Notes under the pieces: model-generated
What the model saw: the letters and a program-made list of their open reading frames with translations, nothing else
Database searches by the model: none
Told to the model about the DNA's origin: nothing
Made by a program: the position numbers and the translations under genes
Assembly: GCA_973895155.1 (NCBI GenBank)
Contig: OZ316895.1
Location: 10,094,184-10,158,183 of the forward strand
Direction of reading: 5' to 3'
DNA: 64,000 bases
Origin: Marsupella aquatica
Lineage: Eukaryota; Plantae; Marchantiophyta
Shown: piece after piece, positions 7,481 to 63,174 of the stretch
How positions within the stretch are numbered: position 1 is the first letter of the stretch
How the letters are laid out: each line of letters begins with the position of its first letter

Positions 7481-8039
7481 TGTTTCCTTTTATGAGTAAA
7501 ACTAACCCACTTTGGTAGCAAGGTCAGTCACTAACTGTCCAAAACCTGTTTAGAAAACCCAATTTTAGGACTCCTCTTTTCGCTACATTAGCTCACTAGC
7601 CATTTGGAGTCTTAACACTAGAAATGCAAAAAACAGGCAAAAATAAAAAGACATTAAACACCAGTAGTGACTTGCTAACAATACCCTCATTGCTGTCAAT
7701 TTTTTTGTTTGCATGCATCATACAATTTCTCTCAATACCTTGGACTTCCAATTTTGCATTGAGGGAGCTCAGTGGTTCCCACAAAAAAATGTGGGCGAGA
7801 AGTACTCCACAATGCCAAGTTGATCAGCCATGGCTGCGGCCTAATGGACTGACCACCGGTTGTACTGGACAGAGTACCTGTTGGCTGTTGCACCCGGTGT
7901 CCCTCCTGTTACAGGTTATATTAGGGGCAGAAGTGTAAGAAGAGTCACGTGAGTTAAAAAATATGTTTGGGCCATGTCCATACTGGTTATCAGAATCCAT
8001 TGGGGCATTGTTTCATATGTAGAGGTCTATCTGAGGTCT

Positions 8040-8168
8040 ATCTGGGCTTCAATTGATGGAAAAGCCATTGTAGTTTTGTTTTATCTGGGCTTCAATTGAT
8101 GGAAAAGCCATTGTAGTTTTGTTTTATCTGGGCTTCAATTGATGGAAAATCCATTGTAGTTTTGTTTT
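8040..8168. repeat. 43-bp tandem repeat x3
   Basis: TATCTGGGCTTCAATTGATGGAAAAGCCATTGTAGTTTTGTTT repeated three times. Confidence 0.92.
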
Positions 8169-17404: not shown

Positions 17405-17660
17405 AACTTCTTTTATTCCGACCCATCCTCGTACCTATCGCGCATGAAGAAGTTTAAAATTTTGTTGAAGAAATGTAGGGGTGACTTATAAGAACTATAG
17501 GGGTTTTTAATACCAAATGTGAGAATATTCCTAGAATATTGTATAAAGTTAGCGGTTAAAAAATACTCAAACTTTACTTTATTTTCTCAAGTTTTAGGGT
17601 GTTTATTACTTGATAACTTTGCGCGTGATATGCGACCTCCCTTGGAGTGAGGCCCCCAAG
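17405..17660. mobile_element. MITE family A copy, inverted, one end missing or disrupted
   Basis: Ends in AGTGAGGCCCCCAAG (17646-17660). The body matches the reverse complement of 39371-39682. Confidence 0.7.
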
Positions 17661-30810: not shown

Positions 30811-30914
30811 TTATTGAACACGTGAATAAAGATTGTATCACTTTGGTATTAATCTGTTTGACTTTTTGCTTGAATTATATGTTTGCAATGCATAACCATG
30901 TTTGCCTCAAAATC

Positions 30915-31155
30915 TTACCCTCATCTCGACATCTTGACCTCACCTCGACATCTTGCCCTTTCCTCAACATTTTACCATCATCTTCACATCTTGCCCTCAC
31001 CTCGACATCTTGCGCTCACCTCAACATCTTGCCCTCACCTCAACATCTTGCCCTCACCTCGACATCTTACCATCACCTCGACATCTTGCCCTCACCTCGA
31101 CATCTTGCCGTCTCCTCAAAATCTTGCCCTCTCCTTGACATCTTGCCCTCACTCG
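30915..31155. repeat. 19-bp minisatellite (CACCTCGACATCTTGCCCT)n, Helitron subterminal
   Basis: About 12 units; degenerate relatives at ~28780-29230 and ~5050-5500. Confidence 0.9.
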
Positions 31156-39682: not shown

Positions 39683-42600
39683 CAGACACTGCTTGGGGAT
39701 ATAGTGTGTAACTAACCAAGTCCGCAACTAACCAATGCGGGCTTGGTTAGTTGTGGAAGGTAACTAACCAAGTCCGCAACTAAGGTTAGCCCGAACTATG
39801 GTTATGCTTGTAACTATAAACCTAATAGTAAAAGACTAGTAGGCAAAGCACAGAAAATCAAAACAACTAGGAATGGAGGAAAGAAAATTGAAACTGAAAG
39901 AAGGATATGGTGATATATACAAGATACGCACCCACAACAGTTTGTTATGGTTATTTTATAATGTAAATACTGATATATTCAATGTATGAAGATTGTTATT
40001 CCTGTAATAAAATGTAACATATTTCTAATCAAATTTTTTTTTTGTTGAAAAATCTCAAAATGTAACTAATACTGTTACATTGTGTTTTTACCACTCACCT
40101 CGCCACTCCCAAACTTTGTTGTTTTTGGTGTATTGTTCAGTATGTTTTGTTGTATGCACTGTGCTTGGCTAGAGTGGCCCACATTTGGGTTGGTAATTTC
40201 CAGCCCCTTTGTTGTGGGAAGGCCATTCCCCCTGCCAGCCATTGCACTGTCATTCCATTGCCTTAGGTTGCTCGTTAACTGTAAGGTCATTATAGAAATC
40301 ACTAAAGTCTGCAATTCCTACCTGATCTGGTCTTCCTGAAATCAAACCAAGTTTGAAACAAGAGTTCAAGAGAGGATTGTACTGGACGATGGGTTCTTGG
40401 AGGAAGAAGAAAGAGTACATTCAACAATGATTAGGGTAGTGTTTGGAAGCCAGACATACTTGCAAGCACATCCGCATTGGTGCCGTGCATGATGGCCGTG
40501 TCAGGGATAATAACAGATTTGAGTCATAGAGAACAAAAAAGGGATCACACCAGTGCCTTGCGCTCCTAAAATGATTTGACGGTCTTGGACCTGAACAGCC
40601 AGCACTGGCAAGTCCTGCCTCTCCACTCCCCAAGGCATTACCTCCAGTTGAGCCCCCAAATGATGTGGGTAGCAAAAGAGCACAAAAATTGATCAAAACT
40701 GATGTGAATGCTTTGAGTGTTAATCTATCTGGTATGAGCCTACAAAACTTGAAGTGCAAGCTCGTACTATTTCAGTTGCAACTCACATTCTTTACATTTT
40801 TCTTGACCAGTTCGAGATATTTTGTCTAAGAGTGTTGCAAACCCATCAGTTTTCAGTCATCGGTATCAGCTGCTCCCATCGGTATCGTTTTCGTGTGGGT
40901 GATTCATACTCAGCGAGGTCACCGGGATGAGTCAGCAAGGTCAGTCGAGTGCGATGGCCACCCGCAGAATTGATGTTCAAATTCTACAAGATTCTTGAGG
41001 TTCACCGAATTAACAATCTCTAGGTTTTTAAATATTAGTCTTTAAGTACATTGTCACTAAATATGTTTGAATTTACAATTTTCTCATTATTTTTATTCTA
41101 TTTAGGAATATGATGATGCGATTGTAGTATATTGTTCTCTTGGTTACCTTAGTGAATTAGTCATCCATATATCAAAATCATGACATAGTGTAAATTAAAA
41201 AAATATATCCAATGTTTTCAATCAGAACATCGTTAGTGTAAGAGCACTTAAAACTTGTTTAATATATTGGTCCTGTGCTGCTAGTGTTTGTATGGACAAA
41301 AGATTGATTGATCGGTATCTCATGTTTTTATTGTCTTTTCATCGTGAGAGTGCTCTATCGTGGGGAGCATGGGTAGACCACGGTACAATGAATCCTCGAC
41401 TGTAGTATGGGTATAGCGATAAGGTAGCCCACTGTTGAATTAGCAACCAGACTACCAGAACATGACCTGCACACGAAATTGAACACCGGTGATGTGGGGT
41501 TCTCACGGTACAACAGGGAAATTTCCACTCTGCCAGGTACAGTACTTCAGAAATGCCACCACATTGTGAGAGAATCGACGGATAAACTCGTACTCTTACT
41601 TTGGGGGAGAGGAAGCTTTGACCGTCGATTCCTTAGTTCATAAATGATGCGAGCAGACTTTAATGTGAAGTTTATGAACACAATAATGGCTTCGAGCTTG
41701 ATCCAGAGCAGGAGAGCGATTAACGAAGGCACCCAGAAGAGGTGGTGGCAAGTGTGGCATGCTGTGGGTGGAAAATGGTCGCTGAGAGCTTAAAAGCAAT
41801 GCAATCAATAAAGCTGCACGCGCTGGAGATGGGCAGTTGATTTGTCTGCTGCACCTTAAACTCTCAGCCACTGTGCCGTAACATAAGCCAGCTAGCAGAT
41901 GGAGGTGAGTACGGTTCTACTTCTCGCGAGTCTCACCGAAACTACACATGTACTGCTGTATCCATGCACATACTATGGAGAAGATACTTTAGATACTACC
42001 CAGCCCCTCCTTTGATAGTGTTCCGACAAGTCTGTTGTCGACTGTCCTCGGTTGCCTTGCCACTATAGTCATACAGAGAGGTCCCAATTAACACATCCTC
42101 GTTTTTTTTCCCTTTCATGAAAGGCTGTAACCAATACTGAATTCCATTCAATGAATTGAAGGAGCTAAGCATACAGTGGTTATTGTCCAGAACCCCTTGA
42201 GACTCTCCTACAGTAGTTAGAGTATTGCAGCTACACTATCACGGCCACAAGGTTCAACTGTTCAAGAGTTGTGCACGTCATCCCGCCACGGGAAACGAAT
42301 TATTAAGGGTAACAGTAGTAGTAAGTTTGCATTAGTTGTAGCTTTGACAGGGGAAGTTTGGTGTCCGTGTTCCCTCCTTGTTTAATGTTCGTAATGAGTT
42401 CAACGACCCACCTGTTGAATTTAAGAATTTGAAGGTCGTGTTTAATGATCGTTGGCTACGTAGCTCGACGCAATGCCAGGTCATGGAAGATGTTGAGCTT
42501 TTACATCTATGGTTTCTGTGTTGAATGTTGTGTCAAACATTTTCCGCCCAATGAGAGAGACACAATGCAAAAGATGCATGTGAGCAAGACGCGAGCACAA

Positions 42601-44752: not shown

Positions 44753-45626
44753 TGCGTAGATCTAGCTTGTGCCTGTCTCTGCCGAGAACATATCAAATGC
44801 GAAATTAAAGGTAAATTACCTCTCCTGTTAGATCCAGGTACATTTAATTTCGCATTTGATTTAACAGGAGAGGTAATTTACTTAATGCGAAATCAAAAGT
44901 AAGTTACCTCTCCTGTTAGATCATCTTCTGCTTATATCACACACGCTACCCATAATGTAGAGCTAGCTCTCAAACATCAAAACTCTTTTTTGCTTGCACT
45001 TTGCAACTCTCATAGCGTGTCCAGTTTCTAATCTTCAATGAATTATTCTGGGATACAACTCACTTAGCGTGCAGTACGTGAGTTAGGGAGGCTGAAGCCC
45101 TCTCCCATTCCTCTTGATAAAAATTGAAGCCTGCCCAAACTTCAGCTGCCTCTACCGTGCAAAACTTTGCCCTCCCAGGTCCTCTCATTTCTACTTTTTG
45201 TACCATAATCTCATTGGATGCCGGGTTTGAATCTCTTGTGCCTCCTTCCTAGTTGGATAGAACAAGTTCCCTTTCTTTCCCTTGCTGTCTTTCTTCATCC
45301 TGAGATTTGGACTGTCATGGAGGACCAAAATGTTGGAGACCTAATATCATTATGGGGCCATGGTTACACCAGATGATGTATAATGATTCCCCAAGGGAGC
45401 TTGTCCAACGACACTCATACTAGTAAGATGAATGCCTTGTTGAGTAGTATAGACATTTTTTATTTTCATCTCTCATGGAGGGCAAGGAAGGTTGTCTCGC
45501 ATTTCAGATTCAGTAATGGAAGCCATGCTTGTCACAATTGGATCACCTTTGAGCTGTGTTACCTTCATTTCATGAGTTTTTGTGTCTAGACCCTGTTTGT
45601 GTTCAAGTTGACCTGGGTAAGCATAT

Positions 45627-45661
45627 AACACAGTGACGGACCAAACGAGAAGTATGACCAC
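45627..45661 (+). repeat. Left terminal inverted repeat
   Basis: AACACAGTGACGGACCAAACGAGAAGTATGACCAC; the CCAAACGAGAAGT submotif is repeated directly afterwards. Confidence 0.92.
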
Positions 45662-46528
45662 CAAACGAGAAGTGTGTTTTCGATTTCGCAAAAACGGCGA
45701 AAAATCACTAAAATTAAGATCAAAAATGTTATTTTGAGGATGAATCCAAAATCGCATCCAACATCAGATTTCAAATCGAGATACTGTCGACACAAAAACA
45801 AAGAATTGTCACAATCCAGAATTCCGATACACTTCATCTAAAAAAAGTGCAAATTCCAAAACCTAGAAAAACAATGCTTTTCATGTGATCCTTCTAAAAG
45901 CTAAATCCGAGCGTCAAACAAAACGAATAAAACACAAGATTTCATTTTCGCCATCAAAATGGCAAACTGAAAATGAGATACGGCGTATCCCATTTCGGAT
46001 TCAACCGTTGAACGTGGACGAAAATCACACCAAATCATTCTCTTGACGCTTCCATTTAACCTCGGGTTAAAAATATTTGAATTTTTAACTGCGGTAAAAC
46101 CAAAAACTGCGAAAAACTGACCGCGGACTACAGTCGACCCACACAGTTAGTTAAGTTAACCCGACGACATGTCCGGAAAATTTTTAGCCCATAACGCATG
46201 ATGAATACGAGATGGGATCCAAGTATCCACTATCGTATTCAACCTCAATGTTTTCCACCTGCAACTTTGCATCAGGAGATCTTTTGACATGAATACCAAC
46301 TGAGATCCATGGATCCCATTTTTTTCGCAAGTCCAAAAACTCATCGGGAAAACAGGAGGATGAATACCATATGGGATCCATGGATCCCATCTAGTATTCA
46401 ACCTCTACATTTTGAAGTTTTTGCATTGCATACATTGATATTCCAGTTTGAAGACCAACTGGGATCCACAGCGACTTCCTCAAAAATCTACAATTTAAAT
46501 TTCAGCATTCTTTGAAAAGACAAACTCT

Positions 46529-46600
46529 CACGTGAAAAAACCCTCGTACGGACCAATCAGGGAATGCCACGTGTCCAATGCCCCCAAAAACTATAAAAGG
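46529..46600 (+). promoter_or_regulatory. Putative transposase promoter (two G-boxes, CCAAT boxes, TATA box)
   Basis: CACGTG at 46529 and 46568 (the latter in GCCACGTGTC), CCAAT at 46553 and 46575, TATAAAA at 46592, ATG at 46751. Confidence 0.5.
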
Positions 46601-46750
46601 AAGAGCTCGCATCTGTTTTTCATCTTCATTTCTCGCAATTACTTTGAGGTTCGTTCAGTATTGAGTAGTTGTTTTCATAGAATACTGTAATCTGAATTTT
46701 CTCTGTTGGATAGGAATACGTACTCCTATACAACCCTTGTTTGATTCTCT

Positions 46751-49700
46751 ATGGCGTCTTCAAGTGATGAGTCAATTTACAGTTCAGATGCATCTTCGCC
46801 AGATGTTGTTTGAAAATTTATTCCATCTCGTTTGATGAATGAATTACCAGCCTCACAGAGAGTAGTGCCAGAGATTTCATTTTCCTCAGAATCTGAGAAA
46901 TCAGAGTCTGATTCAGAGTCTTGTAGGAGTGTTGTGGGTGCTCCAATTTTATACTATGTCTCTCCAAGTAAACCTCTTAAACGACGTCTACTTGTAAAGA
47001 AGCCTAATGTAGTTCCTATGACAGAGACACTTGGTTCACCGCGAACCCCGACAGATCTTCAAAGACGAAGGCCTCGTTTTTTAATGCCAAGACAACTTTA
47101 CCATGTAGGCCCGCCTGAAGATCTCCGTTGGTTTTTCCAATGTCTCTTTCTCCGGGAGTGAAGATAGCTGTGTCCAGTGTTCAATCATAGTTTGAGCAAA
47201 TGAGGAGTCCAAATGTGCCGGAATTGCAGGGAGGGGCAGCCTCGGAGCCAAATTTGGTGGGTCGAATACCAAGTGGGATCCGTGGATCCCACTTGACCGT
47301 ATTCCCTACTTGAATGTTGAGAAATGGTGAACGCAAATTGCCTATTTTGTCTCCTTCAGTACCAAATTCCTTGAGTCAAATACAAAGTGGGGTCCATGGA
47401 TCCCACTTAGTATTCCCTTGTGGTATTTTGCAGAATCCTGTGCCCGAGTCACCGGTCTTGCGGACTTCCAACCCGAGTTCCAATGGTGGAATGCGAAATG
47501 GGATACGCGGATCCCAGTTCGTATTGCGCAACGGAAAATTACCAAGTCATGACGCAGAACAGCAAGTGGGAAAGTTTTCACTTCGAAGTCCCGAAGGACG
47601 AATACGAGTTGGGATCCATGGATCCCAATCGGTATTCCCATCAGTTATTTCACCGAGTGGTGAAACTAACAACAAGGGGCTTCGAAGCCCTTTGGCGAGG
47701 ATGCAGTGTGAGGTTTTTGGATCTTCCATTGGACGGCAAGTGCAGAACGAAAGAGGGAAGAGATCTAGTGTCCAGAAAATTCCTCGGAGATTATTGCGAA
47801 GTGAGCTGCCGAAGAGAGGGCCCAAAAATTCAAAGGTACATGCTAAATTGAGACTTGTCCAAAGATTATTCAATGGTCAAGATGAGCCCTCAAGTCGAGA
47901 AGAATCACCTAGGCTGGGATTACAGTCTCAAAGACAAGTGGGCGGTACTCCGACTGAAGATGTGAATATCATTAGAAGATTTCAAACTAGAAATCTCCGA
48001 ACACCTATTACATTTTCAGAAGACTCTGAAGAGAGATCAGAGGAGGCTGCAAATGACAGAGAGACTGTTGTAATCTCAAATGTTGTTGAAGAGATCCTGG
48101 GATGTGAGATTGTTCATGAAACAGTTACAGAAAATGTGGAGAGTGGAAACAACTCTATAGAAGATCTTTTTGTTTTAAATTCTAATTCACTAGAAAATAG
48201 TGGGGGGTAAGTTCTCCCGACACTATTCAGGATAGAGTAGAGGTGACAAGACCCAGCAAGAAAATCAGAGATCAGATGATTAGAAAAGATAGACTTACCA
48301 TTGCAAATCTAAAAAAATGCAAAATTAAAGATATTTTTAAGTATCCCTGTTGTGACAAGTTTTGTTTGAGATCTCTGGGTCTAGAGGAATGCTCAAAACA
48401 ACGCAAGTATTATTTTGGTCTTAAATACTTGCAAAAAAATATTTTGCTACAAGGTTGTATCATGAACAACTATAGTACTTCTCGTGGATATAGTGTAAAT
48501 GGACAACCTATATGTAGAGGAGGATTCAAGAAACTATATTCTTTAGGTAATAATAGATTGGCAACAATCCATGCAAACATGTTTACAAGGATTGAACGAG
48601 ATACCTTTTGTAAGGAAGACTCACTTTCATTTCTAAACTTGGTGGAATGGTTGAAAGATTTTTTCCAAAAAAATATGGATAGTCTTCCCTATAAAGAGAT
48701 TCATCATTTGCCAGACAATTGGACAAAGCAAGAGATACACGGAATCTTTGAAGCTGAAACAATGTTGCAAGAAGAACAAGTTACATATTCTTATTTTTTG
48801 CGTGTTTGGAAAAAAAGTTTCCAAATGTACGAATTTCTAAAAGGAGTCGATTTTCTACTTGTGGTCCTTGTACTGAATTCAAGGCTCTTCGGGACAAAAC
48901 AATAACTGAAGAGGATAAAAGTAAGTTCCACTAACTATAACCTTCAACTTTAATTTGATGACATGTAATTCAATATTTGTCAAATTTATCCTTAGTTATT
49001 GATTTTTAATTCATTGCTATTGTATCATTTCAAGAAAGTACATCAATGCCCTTATGGAGCATCGAAAAGTACAATCATTGGAAAGGATGAAGTTAGCCAA
49101 GCATCCTAAAAAATGCTATGATGAGCCCAACAAGTATTTGGGTATTTGTATAGATGGTATGGATCAAAAGAAAACAGAGCTACCACATTTTCTTCGTTGT
49201 CCAAAGAACATGGATGAAAAATATTTCATTCCAATACATGTTGTAGGTTGTCTCATCTTCAACAGAAACATTGCAGCAAAAGTATTTTTGACATATCCCA
49301 ATATCCATAATGATGCAAACTTGACCATATATGTTATTCAAAATGTATTGAATACATGGGATGAGACATTACCAAGAGTGTTATATCTTCAATTAGATAA
49401 TACCACTAGGGAAAACAAGAATAAATTCTTGATGGCTTACCTTCACATGTTAGTAGATTTGAAGATTTTTGACAAGATTAAATTAAAGTGGGTTTCTTGT
49501 TGGTCGGTCATACACATGACCAGATAGATCAGATGTTTAGTAAATTTTCGCCTAGGTTAAACAAGCACAAAGCATTTCGCTTGGAGACTCTCGAGGATAT
49601 TATTCGACAAGCATATTCACTTGAAGCTTTGATCATATTTGTGGATGAAGTAGCCAATTTTCAAAAATTTGTCAATGAAAATGACCAGCCAAATGAGAAG

Positions 49701-50639
49701 GGAGTCTTAGGTAGAGTCTTGAGAGATCTCAATCTCATAACTTTTCAAAGGCAATTCAGATTCAAACGAGTCATGGAGGATGGAAACGAAGAGACAACAT
49801 TTCACGGGAAACATCTTTCCATGACCCAGGATTGGGGAGATGCAGTGACGTTCGTCAATTACATTCCAACTTCAAGAATGTGGGTTGCTGCACAAATGTC
49901 ACTAAAGTCAGCAAAAGGTGTTGAGAGAGATGATGTCCATGATTCTTCCAATACAGATGGTGCATTAACTACTCTGGTGAGATATGAAAAAGCTATCCAG
50001 GAAGGTTTCAATTACTTTGACAATGAAGATAAACTTTGGTGGATGAGTTTTTTTGAGAAACAAAAAGATATTATCAAAAACCACCTAGAGGAAGGTGAGT
50101 GGCTATTGGAGTGGGTTTGGCCGCAACAAAATCAAGGTGCACAACTACTTCCAAGGGTGAGAAATGAACTTGTTGAAGAAGGTGTTGATCCAACTTTGGT
50201 TGACAAAGTTGCTAGACCACAGAGAATTATGTACTTCAGACCTCGACAAAAGCAAGCTGAATTTGGATATTTCAGAGATATGGAAGTTAACAATAAGTGG
50301 TCCATGATATGTGTAGCGGCACACAAGGATCCAGAAGGCAAGTTGTTTTGGATGGCAAAGGTGTCAAAGATTTTGACAAGAACTGCAGACATTCTTGAGA
50401 GAATCAAAATCACATGGTACACAACTGAGGCAAGTGCTGAGTCTGCTATTGATGGGAAATATTTTCCAAAGAAAGATAATATATCTAATCGACTTCTCCA
50501 AGATGAACTAGTTCTATCATCAACAACGGTGTATGCATACAACTTTGCGCTTTTAAGTACTAATCAAATAGTAGCAAAAACTAAAAAAATTATAGAGTCT
50601 GCTATATTAGAGCGAGGTTCTGCACACTCAGAGGATTGA
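46751..50639 (+). pseudogene. Sola-like DDD transposase (frameshifted, with in-frame stops)
   Basis: Cys motifs CCDKFC, ICRGGFKKLY and FSTCGPC (after a frameshift near 48815). Predicted intron 48921-49034. Catalytic-core motifs CIDGMDQ, LYLQLDNTTRENKN and GFLLVGHTHDQIDQMFS. C-terminal FWMAKV..ITWY beta-rich domain. The structure upstream of 48243 is uncertain. Confidence 0.82.
47264..47638. repeat. Array of four ~38-bp palindromes at ~112-bp spacing with dissimilar spacers
   Basis: Cores at about 47275, 47389, 47500 and 47611 (GGGATCCATGGATCCC type). Confidence 0.85.
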
Positions 50640-50779
50640 GATTGATGTCCTTAAACAGGTACATGCATCAATTTTAAAATTTGATCTCGAATGAATTTTC
50701 TAAGGTTACATGCTCTTTTACAATTGTACCATTTTTCGGTAAATAAAGACTGTGCATCAAGGCATTGTGTAATATGCCA

Positions 50780-51564
50780 TTAAATTCTGATTTTGTCCAT
50801 ATTTTGAAGAACAAATAGACCACAATCTGAATTGTTTGGTTGTTGAGGTACTTGAGAAAGAATCTTAAAGTTAGTCCAAAGTGCTTAATAAAATTTTGAA
50901 CTAAATAAAAGTTGAAATAATTTTTCAAATCCTTACCATTGGATTGTAAATCTCCACAACTCCCATTGGAACTTTTCCAAAAAATAATTCTCATTCCATT
51001 GTAAAATATCTGCAAATTATCATTCAAAGTTCTTAGTCCAAAGTGTTTATATTTATGTACCACATAAATAAATTCAAATTGAAAAAATGTAATAGAATAT
51101 ATATGTACCTGCTCAGTATTGATCCAATTACATGGGTTGAGTATAGACCGGCGAGAGAGTCTAGATGATACATTTTGATCGAAGATTCAATCCGATCCAA
51201 ACATATTACAACCAGACTCCAATGCATGCTCATGTGAATTGGCATGAGAATGACCTCAATTTGGGAAAATGGTGGCTTGTAATAATTTTGCATCTTTTGA
51301 ATTGATTCCAACAAGGTCTCAGCTGGTTCTGTTTCAATCCTTGAAACAAGCCAAGGGTAAAAAAAAAGGATAATGTGTTTACTGAGGGAGCCAGATCTCC
51401 ATGTTCCTCGGTTATTAATTGTGAGTAAAATTCCATTATTTCATCACCCAAATATTGACCGGGTTCAAGTTGGCTCAATGTTTTATTGTCCAAAAGAAAC
51501 CCACTAGAAGGATTGTGTGAGAATCTATGCAAAACATGTTTCAATACAAATCCTCCTTTGGTTC
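50780..51564 (-). pseudogene. Ulp1/SENP-type (peptidase C48) cysteine protease domain, spliced and frameshifted
   Basis: YLGDEIMEFY, ILMPIHMSMHWSLVVI (His) and YHLDSL (Asp). After two small predicted introns comes VPQQPNNSDCGLFV (Gln/Cys; ~50810-50850, not in the ORF track). Confidence 0.85.
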
Positions 51565-51676
51565 CTGCAAAGACATTACTTTATGAAATAAGAACATAGT
51601 GCAATCATAATCTTCCTCAATATTGAACAAGTTTGGATCAATAGATACAACATGAGAGAACTAATCAAACTAAAGT

Positions 51677-52793
51677 CTACACCTCAAGGAATGAGCCAAG
51701 ATCAAGTGCCGGAGCTTCATGTTCCACTTCATCCCCCGCTTCATCCTCATCATTGACGTTCTCCTCTGCGATTGTAATGATGCAAGTTCCAGTGGTGAGG
51801 GTGCTCGTAGTACCACCAATAGGTGGTTGAACCTTGAAGCTCATGGGTCCTGTACCCTCCTTTGTTGCTTCATCATTCAAGTCCCACGATTCATCCAGCG
51901 TGACAAGTCGGGTCTGGATACAATCCACCTGGCTTGAACTGAGCTCCACGGCTATCACCAGACGTTTCCTAACAAGGCAGCGCATGAGGTTGAACCACTC
52001 CCCGCACATAAATCAGCAACCCAATCCCCTGCTTCACTAAAATGTTGAATGAACCAATCTGCTAGAGCTATCGGCTTCTGGTAAGGGTTCACTATTTCCC
52101 CCAATGGTGTGACACATTTCTTTGTAACACAAGGGACTTTTATGATGTTTACCCTTTTCTCATCATGTTCAAAATTGTACATGTCTCTGGTCCTAATACC
52201 ACTCTCGTGATAATATCTGATTGACCAGTTTTCAAAAGCCCAAGCCAATCGATTCCCAAAAGGATGAGCATGTACATTTGGCTTCTCCCAAATTCCAGTC
52301 TCTACACCTGCATTACAAGTTTACTTTTTCCCAGAGCATTCATCACAGACCAAGTTTGCTGCAAAGAGTGAATCACAACAAACCTCCACATCTTTGAACG
52401 TGTCACCTTGGCCAAACACTTCACCATATTCATAATATCACTGTCTGAAAATGGGACCTCATCATTTTCAGAGCCAGGTGCATTGAATCCATAAGGAATG
52501 TCTGCAATTGCAAGTGTGTAATTCCTTTTCTCTACAAACTTATCTAGCGCCCTGACATCTCCACAATGCAATGTATATCTGATGAAATTTCCATCAGCGT
52601 TTTTCCATCGATGGTCACTCGACTCTGCTTCAACCATTTCAATCCCACGACGACGGTTGTAGTTCTCAATCGCTTCTTGAACATAATTCTTAAACCTCGG
52701 GGGAATAACACTTGAAGTCAGCTCCTCCGAAGGCTTCTCAACCGCATCGGCACCAATTGCATCCTTGTTCTTCTTCTTCGAAAAAGCTTTCAA
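51677..52793 (-). pseudogene. Beta-class N6-adenine/N4-cytosine DNA methyltransferase domain (exon of the ParB-MTase gene)
   Basis: LHCGDV, LAIADIPYG (motif IV variant), GIWEKPN, PYQKPIALADWFIQHFSEAGDWVADLCAGSGSTSCAA (motifs X and I), then RLVIAVELS. Frameshifts near 52325 and 51970. Motif order IV then X-I indicates the beta permutation. Confidence 0.85.
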
Positions 52794-52875
52794 CTGCAAA
52801 CGCAAACTTGTTAAAAGAATCCGGAGAAAAGACAATTGGAAGAACCATTTAGGCATTCAAACAATCAAATCTGGA

Positions 52876-53192
52876 CAACAAATGCGACATGGGATACCCC
52901 GTATCCCACTTTGCATTCAGCCAAGCAAAAACCCCATTGGAACATCACCTACGTCAAATAAACATAGTTGAATCCGAGATGAGATACCCCGTATCCCATT
53001 TTGCATTCAACCAAGCAAAAACCACATTGAAACATCACCAACATCAAATAACCACAAGTCAATCCGAGATGGGATACCGCGTATCCTACTTCGCATTCGA
53101 CCAAGCAAAAACCACATTGAAACATCACCAAAGTCAAATAACCACAAGTGAATCCGAGATGGGATACGCTGTATCCAACTACGCATTCAAAC
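52876..53192. repeat. 90-bp-period palindrome array inside predicted intron 52794-53298
   Basis: GGGATAC-N3-GTATCCC-type cores at 52891, 52981, 53071 and 53161. Confidence 0.9.
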
Positions 53193-53298
53193 AAGAATTC
53201 CAGGAAGGAAACCACCCAAATTGTTAAAACCATATAAGATTAGTTGACCATTTGAGAAACAAATAGAAAAGTCCAATCAATGCAAGGGGAGAACATAC

Positions 53299-55253
53299 CA
53301 CATCGGACAACTTCCCACTCCATCTTTCGAGCTCGGCAGATTCTGTTTCTTTCGGAAACATTTGTTTGCAAGTCGCCCAGTCTGGCTGCCCTGACAACTG
53401 AACAAAAAGCTTGTTGATTTTCACAAGTTTCTTGTAACTCTCGGCTTCTTTTGCCATCTGCTCCAAAGAGATCATCCGGTCCTTCACTCATAGAAGAAGG
53501 GACTCAAAAAATTGGTCGTGTTCAATTCCCTGGATTGCTCTCCAAGGTGTCAGGGTAAGGCCCCCTGCAAGCTTATTCAAAGCTTTTGGAATCGACTGCG
53601 CTTTTCCTTTTTTCTTGAGTTTCTTGATCGGTGACTTCTGCTTATTCTGCCCTTTGATCTCCAACTTGTTCCACATATCAAAGATCTGGTCTTGGAGTTC
53701 CCAAACCTTACCCGACCTGAACGCAATTTGGAAGAGAGGTTCATGCTTCTTCAGGCTTGTGGTGTCCCCCGGAAAAAACCCGTCGAGGCAAACCTCCATT
53801 GCACACTCTTCTCTAGTCTCCTTGGTTTTTGCCATACCTCTGGCAAGGAAAATCTTATGCATTGTTCGGATTTGATCAATGTTGTTCATTTTTTTCCTAT
53901 ACTCCTGATCAATATTATGTTGGATGCTAAGTTTTTGAATGTCCTCCCTTGTGAGACTAGCATACACCCAAGCTTGAAGTTCATTGAAGATCTCTCTCCC
54001 ATAAGCCTGATACAATTCTCTCTTAGCCCGAGCACCATGATTACCTCCAATCACTCGATATCTCCAGCTTGTTGCCTTTTCTGGGTCCCAGTCTGTCACT
54101 GTCGGGCAGTCTTCGGGGATCACAAACAAGACAAATGGGGTGGTGAAATTTGTTGGATTCATTTTCATCAAAGTCTTGATGTTCTCCACATGCAACCGAT
54201 CTACTGTTCGAACCAACGTTGAGTTCTCGTCATCAATATCTCCAACAAGAAGCAGGTTAGTTGTTTTCAGAATAACAGTTGTCTTCTGAACTCTCTTGGT
54301 CTCCATCAACCGAGACACTTCTTCGCGAACCACAAGTGTCTCTTCCCACTGCAAAGCTGTGGTGATATCTGTTGAATGGTTTTTCTTCTATTTCACAGCT
54401 CCCCTAGATGATAGAGAAGGCCCACTTGACGAAGTTGAAGGAATCTGAGACGGTGTCTGTGAAATTGGTGGGACCAAAGATGAGACAACACTTTCGGGTG
54501 CAGATGGTGCGCGCTTCTGGATGTCACGTCGATCTAGTTTCTTCTTGCCAGCAGCTTCTCCTGACACCACTGCTTTAGAACCTTCCCCGGAGAGATGATC
54601 TGCAAGCTTCCTCTTTGCCGGTTCCTTAAAAGAAATTGTGGCAGATTTCTCCTTTGTCAAGGGTGTTCCAGACATCTCCCCTGACTTTGAAGTCGGATTG
54701 GTAGGCTTCGTCACTTTCAACTTCAGAGGACGCTCTTTGACGCCAAAGTCGGCTCCAACGATGGACCTATATGTTACCTTGGTAAAATCCTCAACAACCC
54801 TCCAAGACTTCAAGACAAATTTGAAACACCAATAAGAAAAGTCCTCAATCTCCGGCACTTCCAAAATTAGCTTGCAGATCGGGTCATCAGGAAATGTGTT
54901 CATCGAGACCCGATCGAGTTTCTCGTAGTTGAGGACAACTACAGTGAAGGCATTGTTTGGAAGAATGCAAAGGTACATTGGAATCTTCTTCAGCTGTTTG
55001 GTTTTTGTGTCGGTGATATCTACCTCCCCAATGTCCACGACTAATCCATAATGGCAATGGTCTTTACCCTTAACTATAACCAACCACACCGCTGGACCGT
55101 CATAGGCTTTGTGAATATCCATCGCCCGGGCATCCCTGAAGTACCACCTATTCCTCACGAGTTTCTCCTTGGTGTAACCTTCTTCCAAATCTCATCAATG
55201 ATGGATGTCCGTGAAGACTCAGTCAAACCAAACTACTTTGATTTGTTCGACAT
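53299..55253 (-). pseudogene. ParB/Srx-like domain protein, copy A; large exon predicted to splice in frame to the MTase exon
   Basis: LVRTVDRLHVENIK...PFVLFV...YRVIGGNHGARA...LSIQHNIDQEYR. ORFs 54388-55188, 53488-54354 and 53224-53487 share one frame, split by TAG and TGA. Donor GTATG at 53298 and acceptor TTTGCAG at 52794, phase 0. Confidence 0.72.
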
Positions 55254-55302
55254 GTTCCTGCAAAAGATTGATACATAGAACCAGGGCGTAAACATACAAA
55301 AG

Positions 55303-56035
55303 TAGTTGAATGCGAGATCGGATACGCGGTATCCCACTTTGTATCCAACATCACCAATTCCCGAGTCTGATGCAAAGAACGAAAAAGAGGGAGTTGAATG
55401 CGAAATGGGATATGCGGTATCCCACTTCGCATCCAACATCAACAATTGCCAAGAGTCTGATGCAAAGAACGAAAAATAGGGAGTTGAATGCGAAATGGGA
55501 TACGCGGTATCCCACTTCGCATCCAACATCAACAATTGCCGAGAGTCTGATGCAAAGAACGAAAAATAGGGAGTTGAATGCGAAATGGGATACGCGGAAT
55601 CCCACTTCGCATCCAACATTGACAATTGCCGAGAATCTGATGCAAAGAACAAAAAATAGGGAGTTGAATGCGAAATGGGATACGGGGTATCCCGGTTCAT
55701 ATCCAACATCATCCAATGTGGCTCTTCTTGCAATGATCCTCCGCAACGACCCTAAACCCTAAACATCAGGAATTTCTAGTACTCTGCAATAAAAGACCAA
55801 AGAGATGTAGTTGAATCCGAAATGGGATACGCGGTATCCCATTTTGTATTCAAAGTCAACGAACAGCCACGAGGTTCTGATGGAATACTAAAATGAGGGT
55901 GTTGGATGCAAGATGGGATACGCGGTATCCCATCTCGTATTCAACATTGAAAAGTTCTGTTATTCGAACATAAGGGCAAAGAATAGAGAGTTGAATGCAA
56001 AGGAGGATATGGCGTATCCCACTCAGGATTCAATA
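55303..56035. repeat. Palindrome array (90-bp units) in the predicted 5'-UTR intron of copy A
   Basis: 45-bp hairpin GTTGAATGCGAAATGGGATAC-GCG-GTATCCCACTTCGCATCCAAC. Cores at about 55319, 55407, 55497, 55587, 55677, 55824, 55915 and 56004. Confidence 0.92.
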
Positions 56036-56201
56036 ATGAAGTGCGCCAAGGAAGGGAGAGTTTCTTGAGGTTTTACCTGTTTTTTTGTTTCGATTCGAGC
56101 AAATACAAAAAACTATAGAGATGTTGCAGCCCAAGAAAAACGCGAAGGCAAGCCAAGTTGAGAAGGAAAAGAAATGAGCGTAAACTTTCTGACCAAGCAC
56201 T

Positions 56202-56211
56202 CCTATTTATA
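56202..56211 (-). promoter_or_regulatory. Putative TATA box of the ParB-MTase gene (equivalents near 60625 and 62791)
   Basis: TATAAATAGG on -, about 125 bp upstream of a CAG|GTAAAA donor at 56077. Confidence 0.45.
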
Positions 56212-56532
56212 CTTTATCACCTTTGTATCCATAGGCAATAAGGTGTATCCAAAAGCGGAGGGTTGGAGTCCGAAGGTCTATTTATACTTTTTTTGCTTGA
56301 TAGGACTTTGTTTCTGACTAGATTTAGATTAGGCATATCCCCACGTCCTTGGATTTAACCAAATAGATTTTACGCGTAGCAAATGGGGTTGATGCAAGGG
56401 TAGAATCACAAAACTCTTTATTCATCCGGAATTGTGCTCAAAATAAACTCAGTTGATATTCTTAAAAAGAGTCTTTACAAAGAGCCCATTCAAGATGAGT
56501 AGTCCAAAACATGAAGGACTCTAAACCGGACT

Positions 56533-57072
56533 CTAAGCTTCCCCATACATTTCCAAGAGCCTTGCTTGCTCATCTTTCTCAAGATTGTGCCAGTCTTCTT
56601 GAAATCGATTTAGGTCAGACCTTGAAAATAAACCTAAGAAATTGATTGGAAGAAGATTTGGTGTTTCCATCCTAAGAAAAGCTTCAATATGAACATTCTG
56701 AAGGGGTTTTCCATCGGGAATGCTTGTCAGCATTTCATTTACTTCCTCAAACTGGCTTCTTGCTAGTCTAAGAATACCCCAGAGTCGTGTACAAATTACG
56801 AGTTGGTTCCATTTCTTGGAGGTGCATCCAAGCCACACCATTGTTTTTAATCGCATCAATCTTTCATCAGCTAGGGTCTTGGATGAACCAAATTCATCCT
56901 CTATACAACAAACTTTCAAAATGGGCCAAATGAACGTTTCAACAATCTCATCAGGAAATCCATCCAAAAGCAATCCAGATTCCTTTTGGCCACTTTTTTG
57001 TTGAATTTGTTTCATCTCTTTGTCGAATGACATCGCTAACCTTGTAAAGACAGGGTTCTTAGTGACGGCCAT
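56533..57072 (-). CDS. F-box-like protein (transposon cargo, copy A, open frame)
   Basis: LLDGFPDEIVETFIWP ... WLGCTSKKWNQLV resembles the F-box pattern LPDEI...L.CVSK.W with an insertion. Confidence 0.5.
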   Translation of the reverse strand: MAVTKNPVFTRLAMSFDKEMKQIQQKSGQKESGLLLDGFPDEIVETFIWPILKVCCIEDEFGSSKTLADERLMRLKTMVWLGCTSKKWNQLVICTRLWGILRLARSQFEEVNEMLTSIPDGKPLQNVHIEAFLRMETPNLLPINFLGLFSRSDLNRFQEDWHNLEKDEQARLLEMYGEA

Positions 57073-57248
57073 TCCAAAATAAGAGTGGATACCTGGAGTA
57101 ATAAATGATATGGTGAGCTCTTTATCAGAAACCTACAAAACAGTGATGGAAAAACTGATTTTATTTCTTTGATCAAAAGAAAAATATATTCACAAAATTT
57201 TTGATCCAAGAACGTTCACCTAAACACTTACACACTAATCAAGAAGAT

Positions 57249-57636
57249 TCAACGCGATAAGTTAACCCAAGGATCTTCGTTCCAAATCCGACAACACAAA
57301 TATGCCAATCGATGATATTTGTTTTGGGCATCACGACAATAATTACAAGAAGAATTAACAGAGTGTAGACAACCACTCAAACATATCCTCGACCGAATCG
57401 GAACTCCGTCTTCATTTTTCACAAAACTCTATTCGGAGTGGATTCAAACTATCATGTGGATCCACGCCTCCCGTCCATAGCGCTCCTAATCCAGGACGGA
57501 GAACTTTGAGTGCAACTAATCGCTTATACAATCGATGAGCACGTTTCTCACGATTTTGATTCTGGATTGCCATTAGACTCACAAGAGAAAACGTCATTTT
57601 TCCACGAAAGCAAAAGCTTGAGTCGGTGTCAATCAC
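57249..57636 (-). pseudogene. Small Cys-rich ORF of unknown function, copy A (frameshifted)
   Basis: Homologous to 61675-62007 but broken near 57412. Confidence 0.35.
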
Positions 57637-58035
57637 TGAAAGGCAGCAAGAGCTTCAGTGCGTGTTTAGTTGAACTTTGCCTGCAAAACAATCAGCAATC
57701 CATAAGGTTTTTCCCATGCCAAAAAATCTCTAGGGAGATACCACTTTGGATACCCCATATCCCACTTCGCATTCGACCAAGCAAAAACCATATTGAAACA
57801 TCACAAACGTAAAATAACCACAAGTGAATAAGAGATGGGATACCGCGTATCCCAATTCGCATTCAACCAAGCAAAAAACCACATTGAAACATCACCAACA
57901 TCAAATAAGCACAAGTGAATCCGAGATGGGATACCCCGTATCCCACTTTGCATTCCAACAAGAAATCCATGAAGAAAACCTCCGAACATGGCAAAACAAA
58001 TAGAAAAGTCCAATCAATGGAAGGGGAGAACATAC

Positions 58036-59996
58036 CACATCGGACAATTTCCCACTCCATCTTTCAAGCTTGGCAGATTCTGTTTCTTTCGGAAACATTT
58101 GTTTGCAAGTCACCCAGTCTAGCTGCCCTGACAACTGAACAAAAAGCTTGCTGATTTTCACAAGTTTCTTGTAACTCTCGGTTTCTTTTGCCATCTGCTC
58201 CAAAGAGATCATCCGGTCCTTCACTCGCAGAAGAAGGGACTCCAAAAATCGGTCGTGTTCAATTCCCTGGATTGCTCTTCAAGGTGTCAGGGTAAGGCCC
58301 CCTGCAAGCTTATTCAAAGCTTTTGGAATCGACTGCGCTTTTCCCTTTCCTTTCTTGAGTTTCTTGATCGGTGACTTCTGCTTATTCTGCCCTTTGATCT
58401 CCAACTTGTTCCACATCTCAAAGATCTGGTCTTGGAGTTCCCAAACCTTACCCAACCTAAGCGTAGTTTGGAAGAGAGGCTCATGCTTCTTCAGGCTTGT
58501 GGCGTCCCCCGGAAAAATCCCGTCGAGGCAAACCTCCATTGCACACGCTTCTCTAGTCTCCTTGGGTTTTGCCATACCTCTGGCAAGGAAAATCTTATGC
58601 ATTGTTCGGATTTGATCGATGTTGTTCATTTTTTTCCTGTACTCCTGATCAATATTATGTTGGATGCTAAGTTTCTGAATGTCCTCCCTTGTGAGACCAG
58701 TATACACCCAAGCTTGGAGTTCATTGAAGATCTCTCTCCCATAAGCCTGATACAATTCTCTCTTAGCCCGAGCACCGTGATTACCTCCAATCACTCGATA
58801 TCTCCAGCTTGTTGCCTTTTCTGGGTCCCAGTCTGTCACTGTCGGGCAGTCTTCGGGGATCACAAACAAGACAAATGGCGTCGTGAAATTTTTCGGATTC
58901 ATTTTCATCAAAGTCTTGATGTTCTCCACATGCAACCGATCGACTGTTCGAACCAACGTTGAGTTCTTGTCGTCAATATCGTCAACAAGAAGCAGGTTAG
59001 TTGTTTTCAGAATAACTGTTATCTTCTGAACTCGCTTGGTCTCCATCAATCGAGACACTTCTTCACGAACCACAAGTGTCTCTTCCCGCTGCAAAGCTGT
59101 GGTGATATCTGTTGAATCGTTTTTCTTTTCTTTAACAGCTCCCCTAGATGATAAAGAAGGCCCACCTGACGAAGTTGAAGGAATCTGAGACGGTGTCTAT
59201 GAAATTGGTGGGACCAAAGATGAGACAACACTTCCGAGTGCAGAAGGCGCGCGCTTCTAGATGTCCCGTCGATCCAATTTCTTCTTGCCAATAGCTTCTC
59301 CTGACACCGCTACTTTCAAACCTTCCCCGAAGAGTTGATCTGCAAGCTTCCTCTTTGCCGGTTCCTTAAAAGAAATTGTGGTAGATTTCTCCTTTGTCGA
59401 GGGTGTTCCAGACATCTCCCCTGACTTTGAAGTCGGATTGGTAGGCTTCGTCACTTTCAACTTCAAAGGCCGCTCTTTGACGCCAAAGTCGGCTCCAACA
59501 ATGGACCTATATGCTACCTTGGTAAAATCCTCAACAACCCTCCAAGACTTCAAGACAAATTTCAAACACCAATAAGAAAATTCCTCAATCTCCGGCACTT
59601 CCAAAATTAGCTTGCAGATCGGGTCATCAGGAAATATGTTCATCGAGACACGATCAAGTTTCTCGTAGTTGAGGACAACTACAGTGAAGGCATTGTTTGG
59701 AAGAATGCAAAGGTACATTGGAATCTTCTTCAGCTGTTTGTTTTTGAGTCGGTGATATCCGCCTCCCCAGTGTCCACGACTAATCCATAATGGCAATGGT
59801 CTTTACCCTTAACTATAACCAACCACACCGCTGGACCTTCATAGGCTCTGTGAATATCCATCGCCCGGGCATCCCTGAAGTACCACCTATTCCTCACGAG
59901 TTTCTCCTTCGTGTAAAGGTCCTTCTTCCAAATCTCATCGACAATGGATGTCCGTGAAGATTGGGTCAAACCAGACAACTTTGATTTGTTCGACAT
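58036..59996 (-). pseudogene. ParB/Srx-like exon, copy B (no downstream MTase exon of its own)
   Basis: Paralogue of 53299-55253, starting MSNKSKL at 59996. Stops at 59257 and 58279 and a frameshift near 59740. Confidence 0.72.
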
Positions 59997-60061
59997 GATC
60001 CTGAAAAAGATTGACACACTTAGAACCAGACCAAATTTTGAGCGTAAACATTCAAAAGAAG

Positions 60062-60456
60062 TAGTTGAATGTGGGATCGGATACGCGGTATCCCACTTCG
60101 CATCCAACATCAACAATTGCCTAGAGTCTGATGCAAAGAACGAAAAAGAGGGAGTTGAATGTGAAATGGGATACGCGGTATCCCACTTCGCATCCAACAT
60201 CAACAATTGCCTGGAGTCTGATCAATGCAATGAACGAAAAAGAGGGAGTTGAATGCGAAATGGGATACGTGGTATCCCATTTCATATTCAAATTCAACAA
60301 ACAACGAGGAGGTTCGGATGAAAGACTAAAAAGAGGGTGTTGGATGCGAGATGGGATACGCGGTATCCCATCTCGTATTCAACATTGAAAAGAAGGCCAA
60401 AGAATGGAGAGTTGAATACAAAGGGGGATACGTCGTATCCCACTCAGGATTCAACA
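60062..60456. repeat. Palindrome array, copy B
   Basis: Cores at about 60078, 60168, 60262, 60353 and 60425. Confidence 0.9.
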
Positions 60457-60947
60457 ATGAAGTGCGCCAAGGAGGGGAGAGTTTCTTGAGTTTTTACCTA
60501 TGTTTTTGTTTCGATTCGAGCAAATACGAAAAGCTATAGAGATGTTGCGGCCCGAGAAAAATGCAAAGGCAAGTGAAGTTGAGAAAAAAAAAAGAAATGA
60601 GCGTAAACTTTCTGACCAGGCACTCCTATTTATACTTTATCACCTTTGTATCCATAGGCAATAAGGTTTCCACAGGCGATAATGTGGATCCAAAAGCGTA
60701 GGGTTGGAGTCCGGTGGTCTATTTATAATGTTTTCTCTTGATAGGACTTTGCTTATGACTAGAGATAAGGCATATCCTCAAGTCCTTGTATTAAACCAAA
60801 TAGATTTTACGCGTTGATCCAAGGGTAATCACAAAACTCTTTATTCATCCAGAATTGTGCCACAAAATAAACTAAGTTGATATTCTTAAAAAGAGTTTAC
60901 AAAGAGCCCATTCAAGATGAGCAGTCCAAAACATAAATGGAAGGGCT

Positions 60948-61498
60948 CTAAACCAGACTAGAAGTTTCTCCATACATTTCCAAGAGCCTCGCTTGCTCAT
61001 CTTTCTCAAGATTGTGCCAGTCTTCTTGAAATCGATTTAGGTCAGACCTTGAAAATAAACCTAAGAAATCGATTGGAGGAAGATTCGGTGTTTCCATCCT
61101 AACAAAAGCTTCAATATGAATATTCTGAAGGGGTTTTCCATCGGGAATGCTTGTCAGCATTTCATTTACTTCCTCAAACTGGCTTTTTGCTAGTCTAAGA
61201 ATACCCCAGAGTCGTGTACAAATTACGAGTTGGTTCCATTTCTTGGAGGTGCATCCAAGCCACACCATTGTTTTAATCGCATCAATCTTTCATCAGCTTG
61301 GTTCTTGGAGGAATCAAATTCATCCTCTATACAACAAACTTTCAAAATGGGCCAAATGAACGTTTCAACAATCTCATCAGGAAGTCCATCCAAAAGCAAT
61401 TCGGATTCCCTTTGGCCACTTTTTTGTTGAATTTGTTTCTTCTCTTTGTTGAATGACATCGCTAACCTTGTAAAGATAGGGTTCTCAGTGACGGCCAT
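60948..61498 (-). pseudogene. F-box-like ORF, copy B (frameshift near 61272)
   Basis: LLDGLPDEIVETFIWP and WLGCTSKKW fall in two different frames. Confidence 0.5.
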
Positions 61499-61674
61499 TC
61501 CAAAATAAGAGTGGATACCTGGAGTAATAAATGATATGGTGAGCTCTTTCTTAGCAACCTACAAAACAGTGATGGAAAAACTGATTTTATTTCTTTGATC
61601 AAAAGAAAAATATATTCACAAAATGTTTGACCCAAGAACGTTCACCTAAACACTTACACACTAATCAAGAAGAT

Positions 61675-62007
61675 TCAACGCGATAAGTTAACCCAAGGAT
61701 CTTCATTCCAAATCCAACAACACAAATATGCCAATCGATGATATTTGTTTTGGGCATCACGACAATAATTACAAGAAGAATTAACAGAGTGCAGACAACC
61801 ACTCAAATATATCCTCGACCGAATCGGAACTCCTTCATTTTTTTCACAAAACTCTATTCGAAGTGGACTCAAACTATCATGTGGATCCATGCCCCCCGTC
61901 CATAGCGCGCCTAATCCAGGACAAAGAACTTCGAGTGCAACTAATCGCTTATACAATCGACGAGCACATTTCTCATGGTTTTGATTCTGGACCGCCATTA
62001 GACTCAC
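61675..62007 (-). CDS. Small Cys-rich hypothetical protein (cargo, copy B)
   Basis: 110-aa ORF with C-x2-C (CNYC) plus other Cys/His residues, conserved with copy A. Confidence 0.35.
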   Translation of the reverse strand: MSLMAVQNQNHEKCARRLYKRLVALEVLCPGLGALWTGGMDPHDSLSPLRIEFCEKNEGVPIRSRIYLSGCLHSVNSSCNYCRDAQNKYHRLAYLCCWIWNEDPWVNLSR

Positions 62008-62170
62008 AAGAGAAAACTTTGTTTTTCAAGGAAAGCTTAAGCTTGAGTCGGTGTCGGTCACTGAAAGGCAGCAAGAGCTTCAGTGTGTGTTTAGTTGAAC
62101 TTCGCCTGCGAAACAATCAGCAATCCATAAGGTTTTTCCCATCATCAAAAAAACTCTAGGTAAATACCAC

Positions 62171-62640
62171 ATGGGATACCCCGTATCCCACTTTGCATCC
62201 AACCTCCGTTTTTAGCTAAAGAGAAATCAAAATTGGACATTTGAAGAGTGAATCCCAAACGGGATACGCCGTATCCCATTTCGCATTCAACGTTGAGGTT
62301 TTGACATTTGGAGTCTAAGATGCTTCATATTCGGAGGTTGGATGCGACATGGGATACCCCGTATCCCATTTCGCATCCAACCTCCTTTTTTAGGTAAAGA
62401 GAAATCAAAACTGGACATTTGAAGGGTGAATCCCAAACGGGATACGCCGTATCCCATTTCGCATTCAAAGTTGAGGTTTTGACATTTGGAGTCTAAGATA
62501 CTTCATATTTGGAGGTTGGATGCGATATGGGATACCCCGTATCCCACTTCGCATCCAACCTCCTTTTTTAGCCAAAGTGAAATGAAAACTGGACATTTGA
62601 AGGTTGAATCCCAAACGGGATACGGCGTATCCCATTTGGG
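62171..62640. repeat. Palindrome array with alternating spacers (178-bp higher-order repeat)
   Basis: Cores at about 62173, 62261, 62351, 62438, 62529 and 62617; spacers alternate A/B. Confidence 0.9.
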
Positions 62641-63112
62641 ATTTGTCCTCGCCATTTTCAGGAAGATTCTCACCTGTTAGTCAAAACTGATTTTTGGCGA
62701 ATACGAGTTTGTATAGACGGTGTGCATTCGTCGAGAGTAAGAGTATACAGAGCGAGAAAAAATGAGCGGAAAATTCTCAAGCGGTGATCTCCTATTTATA
62801 GTTTTCTCTCTGACCGTGGTTAGTATTTGACTGCAGTTGCATCGTAGTCGGTTAAATGTTACCGTTGAGAAGAATCGTTTTGGAATATTCTTGTCGGGTA
62901 AACCAATATCTGCAATTTTACTGCGTTTGTTTTTGGTTTTTTGAATTCCGCGGTTGGATCCAAAATGGGATACGCCGTATCCCATCTTCGTATTCATGTC
63001 GATTTTTCCCATTTTTTCAATTCAAAAAACTAGTTTTTAGGGGGAATACTAATTCCGTATCCAAGACTTTTTTGCCTTAGAAACATTTTTCGCCGCGGGC
63101 AAAATGAGAAGT

Positions 63113-63147
63113 GTGGCCACACTTCTCGTTTGGTCCGTCACTGTGTT
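63113..63147 (-). repeat. Right terminal inverted repeat
   Basis: GTGGCCACACTTCTCGTTTGGTCCGTCACTGTGTT, overlapping the local palindrome GAGAAGTGTGG|CCACACTTCTC. Confidence 0.92.
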
Positions 63148-63174
63148 ATATGCGCATTTCAACCTATCTAACGT

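Follow-up and report, generated by a model that had tools for sequence, protein, structure and literature searches.

The liverwort Marsupella aquatica carries, in the 64,000-nucleotide window analysed here (contig OZ316895.1 of assembly GCA_973895155.1, positions 10,094,184 to 10,158,183 of the forward strand), a DNA transposon of 17,521 bp (45,627 to 63,147) that is bounded by a pair of terminal inverted repeats (TIRs; a 41-nt inverted pair was found in the window) and contains 35 palindromes. These palindromes are real, selected and element-specific; their reader and function we infer. On balance, the sequence comparisons and structural models lean towards conserved, family-specific cis-elements that likely serve as operator arrays for a ParB-methyltransferase fusion, which the element itself encodes in a spliced gene.

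An earlier note on this DNA had listed about 35 palindromes in nine places, and a half-site weight-matrix scan recovered exactly 35 paired sites in the element, in the same clusters and numbers (Table 1). Twenty-eight belong to an odd class (18+3+18 bp) and seven to an even class (18+2+18 bp), the latter all located at 46.2-47.6 kb. The proposed form GGGATAC-N3-GTATCCC gave 28 matches with two mismatches or fewer against 0.12 expected, a number reached in 0 of 100 shuffles, while the exact form GGGATCCATGGATCCC is present in only two copies. No paired site scored in positions 1 to 45,600, and the statement that none lies outside the TIRs was borne out within the window, with 0 sites in the remaining 46.5 kb. 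A degenerate cross-family pattern, devised after the data had been seen, matched 47 times within the element and nowhere in the remaining 46,479 bases. The half-site of the window reads approximately TTGRATRC-SARR-TGGGAT(A/C)C, with G5, A4 and T3 nearly invariant, and AAT stands 17 to 15 bases from the centre in 50 of 70 half-sites (AT in 66). Contrary to the earlier suggestion, the central bases do not vary freely: 81 of 84 bases in the 3-nt centres are G or C, and 25 of the 28 centres read CGC, CCC or GCC on one strand.

The main evidence for selection comes from five related loci (L001 to L005), all of which carry the ParB gene. The ParB part of L001, L002, L003 and L005 is 48-53% identical to that of the window, and these loci hold 18, 20, 8 and 3 motif copies, respectively (49 in total); in line with the earlier note, the motif is kept in four of the five relatives with a ParB gene. 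None of the 49 copies lies in an exon, though exons make up 53-77% of each locus. The motif reads GAAT..GGAGCGAGAC-N2-GTMTCGCTCC..ATTC in L001, L003 and L005, and GAATAC-N5-CCGATCC-AA-ACATCGG, with a one-sided outer box, in L002. Common to all motif families are AAT at 17 to 15 and GA at 5 to 4 from the centre; AAT, which lay outside the search patterns, was found in 32 of 36, 14 of 16 and 4 of 6 half-sites of L001, L003 and L005 and, on one side, in 19 of 20 of L002. Synonymous sites between L001 and L003 are saturated (proportion of synonymous differences, pS, 0.71-0.95), and motif-masked non-coding DNA gave 0 BLAST matches in all six locus pairs. That AAT is kept despite this saturation and among otherwise unalignable non-coding DNA (87-93% identity, versus 34-39% at positions 14 to 10) points to selection on the motif.

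Some further expectations fared less well in the relatives. The half-site G(G/T)ATCC had been proposed as the methylated target, but just 4 of the 98 half-sites in the relatives have the inner box GGATAC/GGATCC, the invariants across families being AAT and GA. A spacing of about 90 bp describes most gaps of the odd class (88-94 bp), but not the even class (71-114 bp) or the relatives (33-229 bp), and is a family-specific trait. Fixed 90-bp phasing was rejected, the unit length being about 45 bp in L003, about 62 bp in the upstream array of L001 and about 90 bp in the window.

The candidate reader is the ParB part of the fusion. A model of the L002 ParB exon (predicted local distance difference test score, pLDDT, 75) aligns with Noc and Spo0J along 280-300 columns at E 6e-5 to 1e-3 and with KorB at Z 9.2, with weaker DNA-binding-domain or operator entries at Z 4.1-5.2. 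Pfam HTH_ParB matched the ParB exon weakly and below the cut-off (E 9e-4), and the GHxR helix of the L002 model aligns with Spo0J at E 0.25. From these matches, the ParB part is predicted to fold like Noc, Spo0J and KorB, including a helix-turn-helix (HTH) DNA-binding domain. A specificity residue of ParB/Noc, G201, sits in this helix according to the accessible part of PMC7383237; its equivalent is G in L001-L003, T in the window and H, R, S or V in other homologues. Between L001 and L003 the CTPase part reaches 90% identity and the DNA-binding part 75-76%. Twenty close homologues of the ParB exon were found, and a search with it that was aimed at longer homologues gave none.

The methylase part shows the beta-class order, motif IV before motif I (AD(I/V/L)PYG, then DLCxGxG), and matches PF01555 above the cut-off. 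Of 27 close homologues, 23 retain AD(I/V/L)PYG, and those that do not are four short pieces of 209-244 amino acids. Profiles of the methylase exon match phrog_67 and phrog_498 (E 5e-14 to 4e-11), and a PDB sequence search with one methylase gave 0 matches at E 0.01, with weak profile matches at E 0.015-0.11. According to the text available from PMC8885841, the D-type motif (DPPY versus SPPY) is associated with N6-methyladenine (6mA); the D in place of S here suggests 6mA, and the enzyme is probably an adenine N6-methyltransferase, judging from its class and its D-I/V-P-Y motif.

A ParB profile search returned 410 proteins at E 0.001; when 35 of the long ones were scanned, 8 proved to contain PF01555 as well. 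Chara, Riccia, Adiantum, Ginkgo, Holothuria and Haliotis have named relatives of the ParB part, several of these fused to a methylase and all known as proteins, not from their DNA context. The animal members (P0142, P0172, P0221 and P0146, from Holothuria and Haliotis), some fused to PF01555, and the fungal DUF3723 proteins among the Atlas neighbours of the family suggest that it may span eukaryotes. The N-terminal domain of the fusion (L002:393-950; window 54,391-55,191, minus strand) had its best Z scores with M18BP1 SANTA (6.2) and DNMT1/MET1 RFTS (4.8, 3.6 and 3.3), both chromatin-linked; the model is of low confidence (pLDDT 56, 5 rows), it gave no Foldseek match at E 0.001 and no usable Atlas match, and the SANTA/RFTS likeness is a lead only.

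We hypothesize that the paired HTH domains of a fusion dimer would read the 16-17-bp core, and that a methylase held there would act on one of the invariant adenines, the likeliest being those of the AAT box, a helical turn farther out, or of the inner GA. The arrays on element promoters and introns would be where the fusion acts; 31 of the 35 window sites have a non-coding placement (upstream, terminal or in GT-AG introns), and some copies lie upstream of a TATA-like box or 3' of a gene. In the cluster at 47,264-47,637, three of the four sites, spaced 111-114 bp apart, lie inside a 298-codon open frame that has three stops earlier in the same frame. With still less confidence, the bound protein or its mark may keep the element promoters active or mark copies as self, like VANC on VANDAL, and the arrays would be renewed by tandem amplification in step with drift of the reading head.

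Several observations weigh against the operator reading. The 1,086 bases of L004, which include one short intron, are free of the motif, and core positions 9 to 1 of the relatives belonged to the search patterns, which inflates their identity. The motif class follows protein relatedness (proteins 80-85% identical share a motif; those at 60-65% and 48-53% do not), which speaks for the operator reading but is also expected from descent alone, and with only three classes co-evolution and descent are not separable. The exon limits are our own GT-AG readings, a spliced protein (P0014), which reads across the ParB-methylase intron, supporting one intron only. A stretch of 4.4-4.8 kb is duplicated in tandem within the element, and CG transitions between the duplicated segments are not rarer near the arrays (21 of 94 within 300 bp, 12 of 82 and 14 of 91 farther away), so this dead copy shows no sign of local protection from 5-methylcytosine (5mC). 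The observed/expected CpG ratio drops from 0.77-0.81 at up to 400 bp from a site to 0.34 beyond 1.5 kb, a difference confounded with coding content. Where this copy departs from what most copies carry, 28 of the 40 listed changes are of the C-to-T type, a pattern that a dead, methylated copy should show. As to a protective outcome, the evidence points both ways. Finally, the four sites in the transposase gene and the single sites near both ends suit the transposase as well.

This last point leads to the main rival, which we consider unlikely: the palindromes might be sites of the transposase, or of another element protein, for end synapsis or transcriptional activation, like the subterminal repeats of CACTA TnpA or AtMu1. 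One palindrome lies about 340 bp in from the left end and another about 150 bp in from the right, a cluster is located upstream of and within the transposase gene, a transposase is co-located in L003, and sequence-specific activation by transposases is reported in the accessible part of a preprint (10.64898/2026.08.24.746577). However, 20 of the 35 palindromes surround the ParB-methylase gene, at 2.7-10 kb from whichever end is nearer, with a similar arrangement in the relatives. The TIRs hold a separate repeat of their own that could serve the transposase, and the depth in run X5 (19,356 on the TIR versus 1-71 in interior bins) indicates that the TIR can travel without the interior of this element.

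Sites of a host transcription factor, or a palindromic repeat amplified neutrally in tandem and homogenised by conversion, are a distinctly improbable explanation. The arrays are indeed tandem repeats of variable unit length, and the junction of the internal duplication falls inside the palindrome at 57,736-57,774, whose left arm derives from the intron at 62 kb and whose right arm from that at 52.9 kb, so that the arrays are also recombination substrates. Contig joints in other copies were likewise seen at array positions. Yet the box geometry outlasts the saturation of neutral sites, the middle letters differ by family in both arms together, unlike a fixed host site, and 46.5 kb of host DNA gave 0 matches.

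The palindromes could also act as RNA or single-strand DNA hairpins (splicing signals, a small-RNA source or cruciforms), and the hairpins of 38-45 bp described earlier do fold strongly: arms reach 38-43 bp, the copies of the window and L001 have folding energies of -19 to -30 kcal/mol (z -3.5 to -8), and most copies are intronic. Selected pairing, however, should make the arms match better within one copy than between copies, and no such excess was seen in five of six sets (P 0.33, 0.38, 0.10, 0.34 and 0.26), the seven even-class copies giving P 0.045. Nor did the transcribed strand show a consistent G-U bias (G-U versus A-C 38 to 30 in the minus-strand clusters of the window, 18 to 39 in the relatives). 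L002 retains the box geometry with its one-sided outer box, yet folds weakly (two copies folded, z 0.3 and -2.3, one no better than shuffles), some copies lie upstream of a TATA-like box or 3' of a gene, and a search of Rfam gave 0 matches. The hairpin as the selected feature was rejected on these grounds and is very improbable. The lack of arm covariation and the weak L002 fold indicate that the unit behaves as two protein half-sites on duplex DNA, consistent with the dimeric protein site proposed before.

Least probable of all is a true parS analogue with loading of a clamp dependent on cytidine triphosphate (CTP) and spreading over the element, as in KorB, VirB or BisD, for although the parS-like character claimed earlier stands in the symmetric 16-17-bp core of all families and the predicted ParB CTPase fold with HTH, the GxxR arginine, whose loss abolishes nucleoside triphosphate binding as stated in the accessible part of 10.1101/2025.10.10.680097, is G (GNHG) in 21 of 22 non-redundant relatives, which makes a CTP clamp doubtful, and no ParA was found among the 20 element frames scanned. 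The nearly invariant GNHG-ARAK and HNIDQEYRK boxes, which would favour such an analogue, suggest that some ligand site is under selection.

The operator arrays proposed here sit in an element whose TIRs, 4-bp target-site duplication and DDD-type motifs fit a Sola-like plant transposon; the DUF7869 motifs we take to be linked to Sola transposases. Differing flanks stop at 45,627 in 28, 12 and 23 public contigs (three runs), and the summed contig depth of run X1, which is not a copy number, was 1,900-18,000 inside the element versus 59-144 outside, so the element is multicopy in its host. At 45,626-45,701 the X5 depth was very high on the TIR alone, which suggests short or divergent elements with common ends. 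The transposase C-terminus is 45% identical to a convergent gene in L003; its part at 50,240-50,600 (plus strand; FWMAKVSKIL...ITWY), conserved in L003 and without a Pfam match, looks to the eye like a Tudor/BAH-type reader. The window is plant nuclear DNA, with aspartic protease genes and fragments of copia and of a Pif1 helicase. The copia-type retrotransposon fragment lies at 1-2,942 (plus strand), and the Helitron-like Pif1 fragment at 30,220-31,190 precedes a 19-bp tandem array. Positions 4,238-5,926 hold another, separate element of 1.7 kb, which has inverted arms of about 290 bp (91-97% complementary) and short internal repeats. At 39,709-39,779 there is a small foldback in which 18-bp units alternate; it has no relation to the palindrome motif.

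Table 1. Palindrome clusters and other features of the transposon (positions in the window).
Feature	Position	Strand	Basis or remark
One odd-class palindrome near left end	45964..46002	.	weight-matrix scan
Three even-class palindromes upstream of transposase start	46203..46399	.	weight-matrix scan
Four even-class palindromes in 5' part of transposase gene, intron or low-complexity exon	47264..47637	.	weight-matrix scan
Four odd-class palindromes in GT-AG intron 52794-53298 between ParB and methylase exons	52880..53188	.	
Eight odd-class palindromes in predicted intron (55258-56076) of the 5' untranslated region of the ParB-methylase gene	55308..56031	.	GT-AG read from sequence
Three odd-class palindromes, the first a hybrid junction of the internal tandem duplication	57736..57955	.	
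Five odd-class palindromes, duplicate of the 55.3-56.0 kb array	60067..60452	.	
Six odd-class palindromes in predicted 5' intron of small gene, F-box-like by eye	62162..62644	.	
One odd-class palindrome near right end	62956..62994	.	
Whole Sola-like transposon	45627..63147	none	TIR pair, differing flanks and depth in public contigs
Left TIR	45627..45672	+	holds CCAAACGAGAAG twice; repeat distinct from the palindromes
Right TIR	63101..63147	-	inverted partner of left TIR
Left target-site duplication ATAT	45623..45626	.	right copy 63148-63151; TATA if ends are taken one base in
Broken DUF7869 (DDD-type) transposase gene	46751..50642	+	Pfam PF25273, E 3.5e-25 and 6.1e-15
Broken Ulp1/Peptidase_C48 (SUMO protease-like) gene	51036..51580	-	PF02902, E 2.6e-8
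Beta-class N6/N4 DNA methyltransferase exon	51680..52793	-	ADIPYG then DLCAGSG; PF01555, E 2.7e-7; alignment; frameshift in this copy
N-terminal domain and ParB exon (predicted CTPase fold, HTH DNA-binding domain)	53299..55257	-	broken in this copy
Duplicated second N-terminal domain and ParB exon, without its own methylase exon	58035..59995	-	reading frames and duplication comparison
Small gene, F-box-like by eye only	56533-57132 and 60948-61558		no Pfam match

The nearest known systems, as far as the accessible parts of the sources go, are the ParB-methylase fusions of phages and the Dam-carrying retrotransposons. The former, described in phages and prophages (10.1101/2025.10.10.680097, PMC4738411), have the same pair of domains, ParB and N6/N4-methyltransferase, but the available text of these accounts describes neither a form in eukaryotic transposons nor arrays of target sites, while the fusion here resides in plant transposons with introns. 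Viral contigs yielded ten related stretches but no locus, none of them with a methylase alignment, and a general motif pattern gave seven single sites there and no arrays; the prokaryote genomes searched contained no relative and 0 matches to the window motif. DIRS and long terminal repeat (LTR) retrotransposons carrying DAM likewise combine a prokaryotic adenine methylase, proposed to favour activity, with a transposon (10.64898/2026.05.21.726589). They differ in being retroelements with a Dam-class enzyme; the accessible part of that preprint mentions neither ParB nor dedicated target palindromes and states that DAM-LTRs are absent from streptophytes.

In the VANDAL/VANC anti-silencing system of Arabidopsis an element-encoded protein reads motifs, according to the available portion of PMC5735166. 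There, too, the motifs are element-specific, are gathered as tandem repeats in introns and intergenic and terminal non-coding DNA, and differ between related families. In contrast, VANC motifs are 9 bp long, share one orientation, belong to Mutator-like elements and bring about a loss of 5mC, and VANC binding has been shown, whereas 38-39-bp palindromes on a DUF7869 element face a candidate reader consisting of a predicted ParB-HTH part fused to an amino-methyltransferase. Neither a Mutator transposase nor a VANC protein was found among the element frames scanned, the transposase being DUF7869. ParB, Noc, KorB and VirB (PMC7383237, PMC10676424, in the parts accessible) share the CTPase and DNA-binding folds predicted here, a two-fold site and a 16-17-bp core, and VirB is itself described in the latter as an anti-silencer on a mobile element. 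Unlike these, the present system has lost the GxxR arginine, lacks ParA and has an extra outer AAT box, a fused methylase and N-terminal domain and a eukaryotic spliced gene. To Sola transposons the element is likened by description, not by comparison with a named Sola transposase: the DDD-type transposase, the 4-bp duplication (ATAT fits AWWT of Sola1), occurrence in a moss and a size above 15 kb in some elements agree, and the accessible parts of the accounts (PMC10741241, PMC3845634) make no mention of such cargo. Literature searches, which left out most subscription literature, found no ParB-methylase transposon or its target sites described, and Repbase could hold the element unremarked.

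More tentatively, and as a possibility rather than an expectation, a streptophyte-wide transposon family may run a private 6mA system in a lineage reported to be without a host 6mA writer, in which a phage-type ParB-methylase would dock on family-specific palindromes and mark its own element, licensing expression or self-recognition, while reading head and address co-evolve. Because the predicted target site is known along with a candidate reader, binding and modification can be tested directly. If true, the operator arrays would provide a series of natural reader/site pairs that could be put to use for orthogonal targeting, and a defined source of site-specific 6mA (or N4-methylcytosine) in plants, where such marks are disputed. 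They would also represent a second, independent case of transposon self-addressing in plants, built not from VANC but from bacterial partition and methylation parts.

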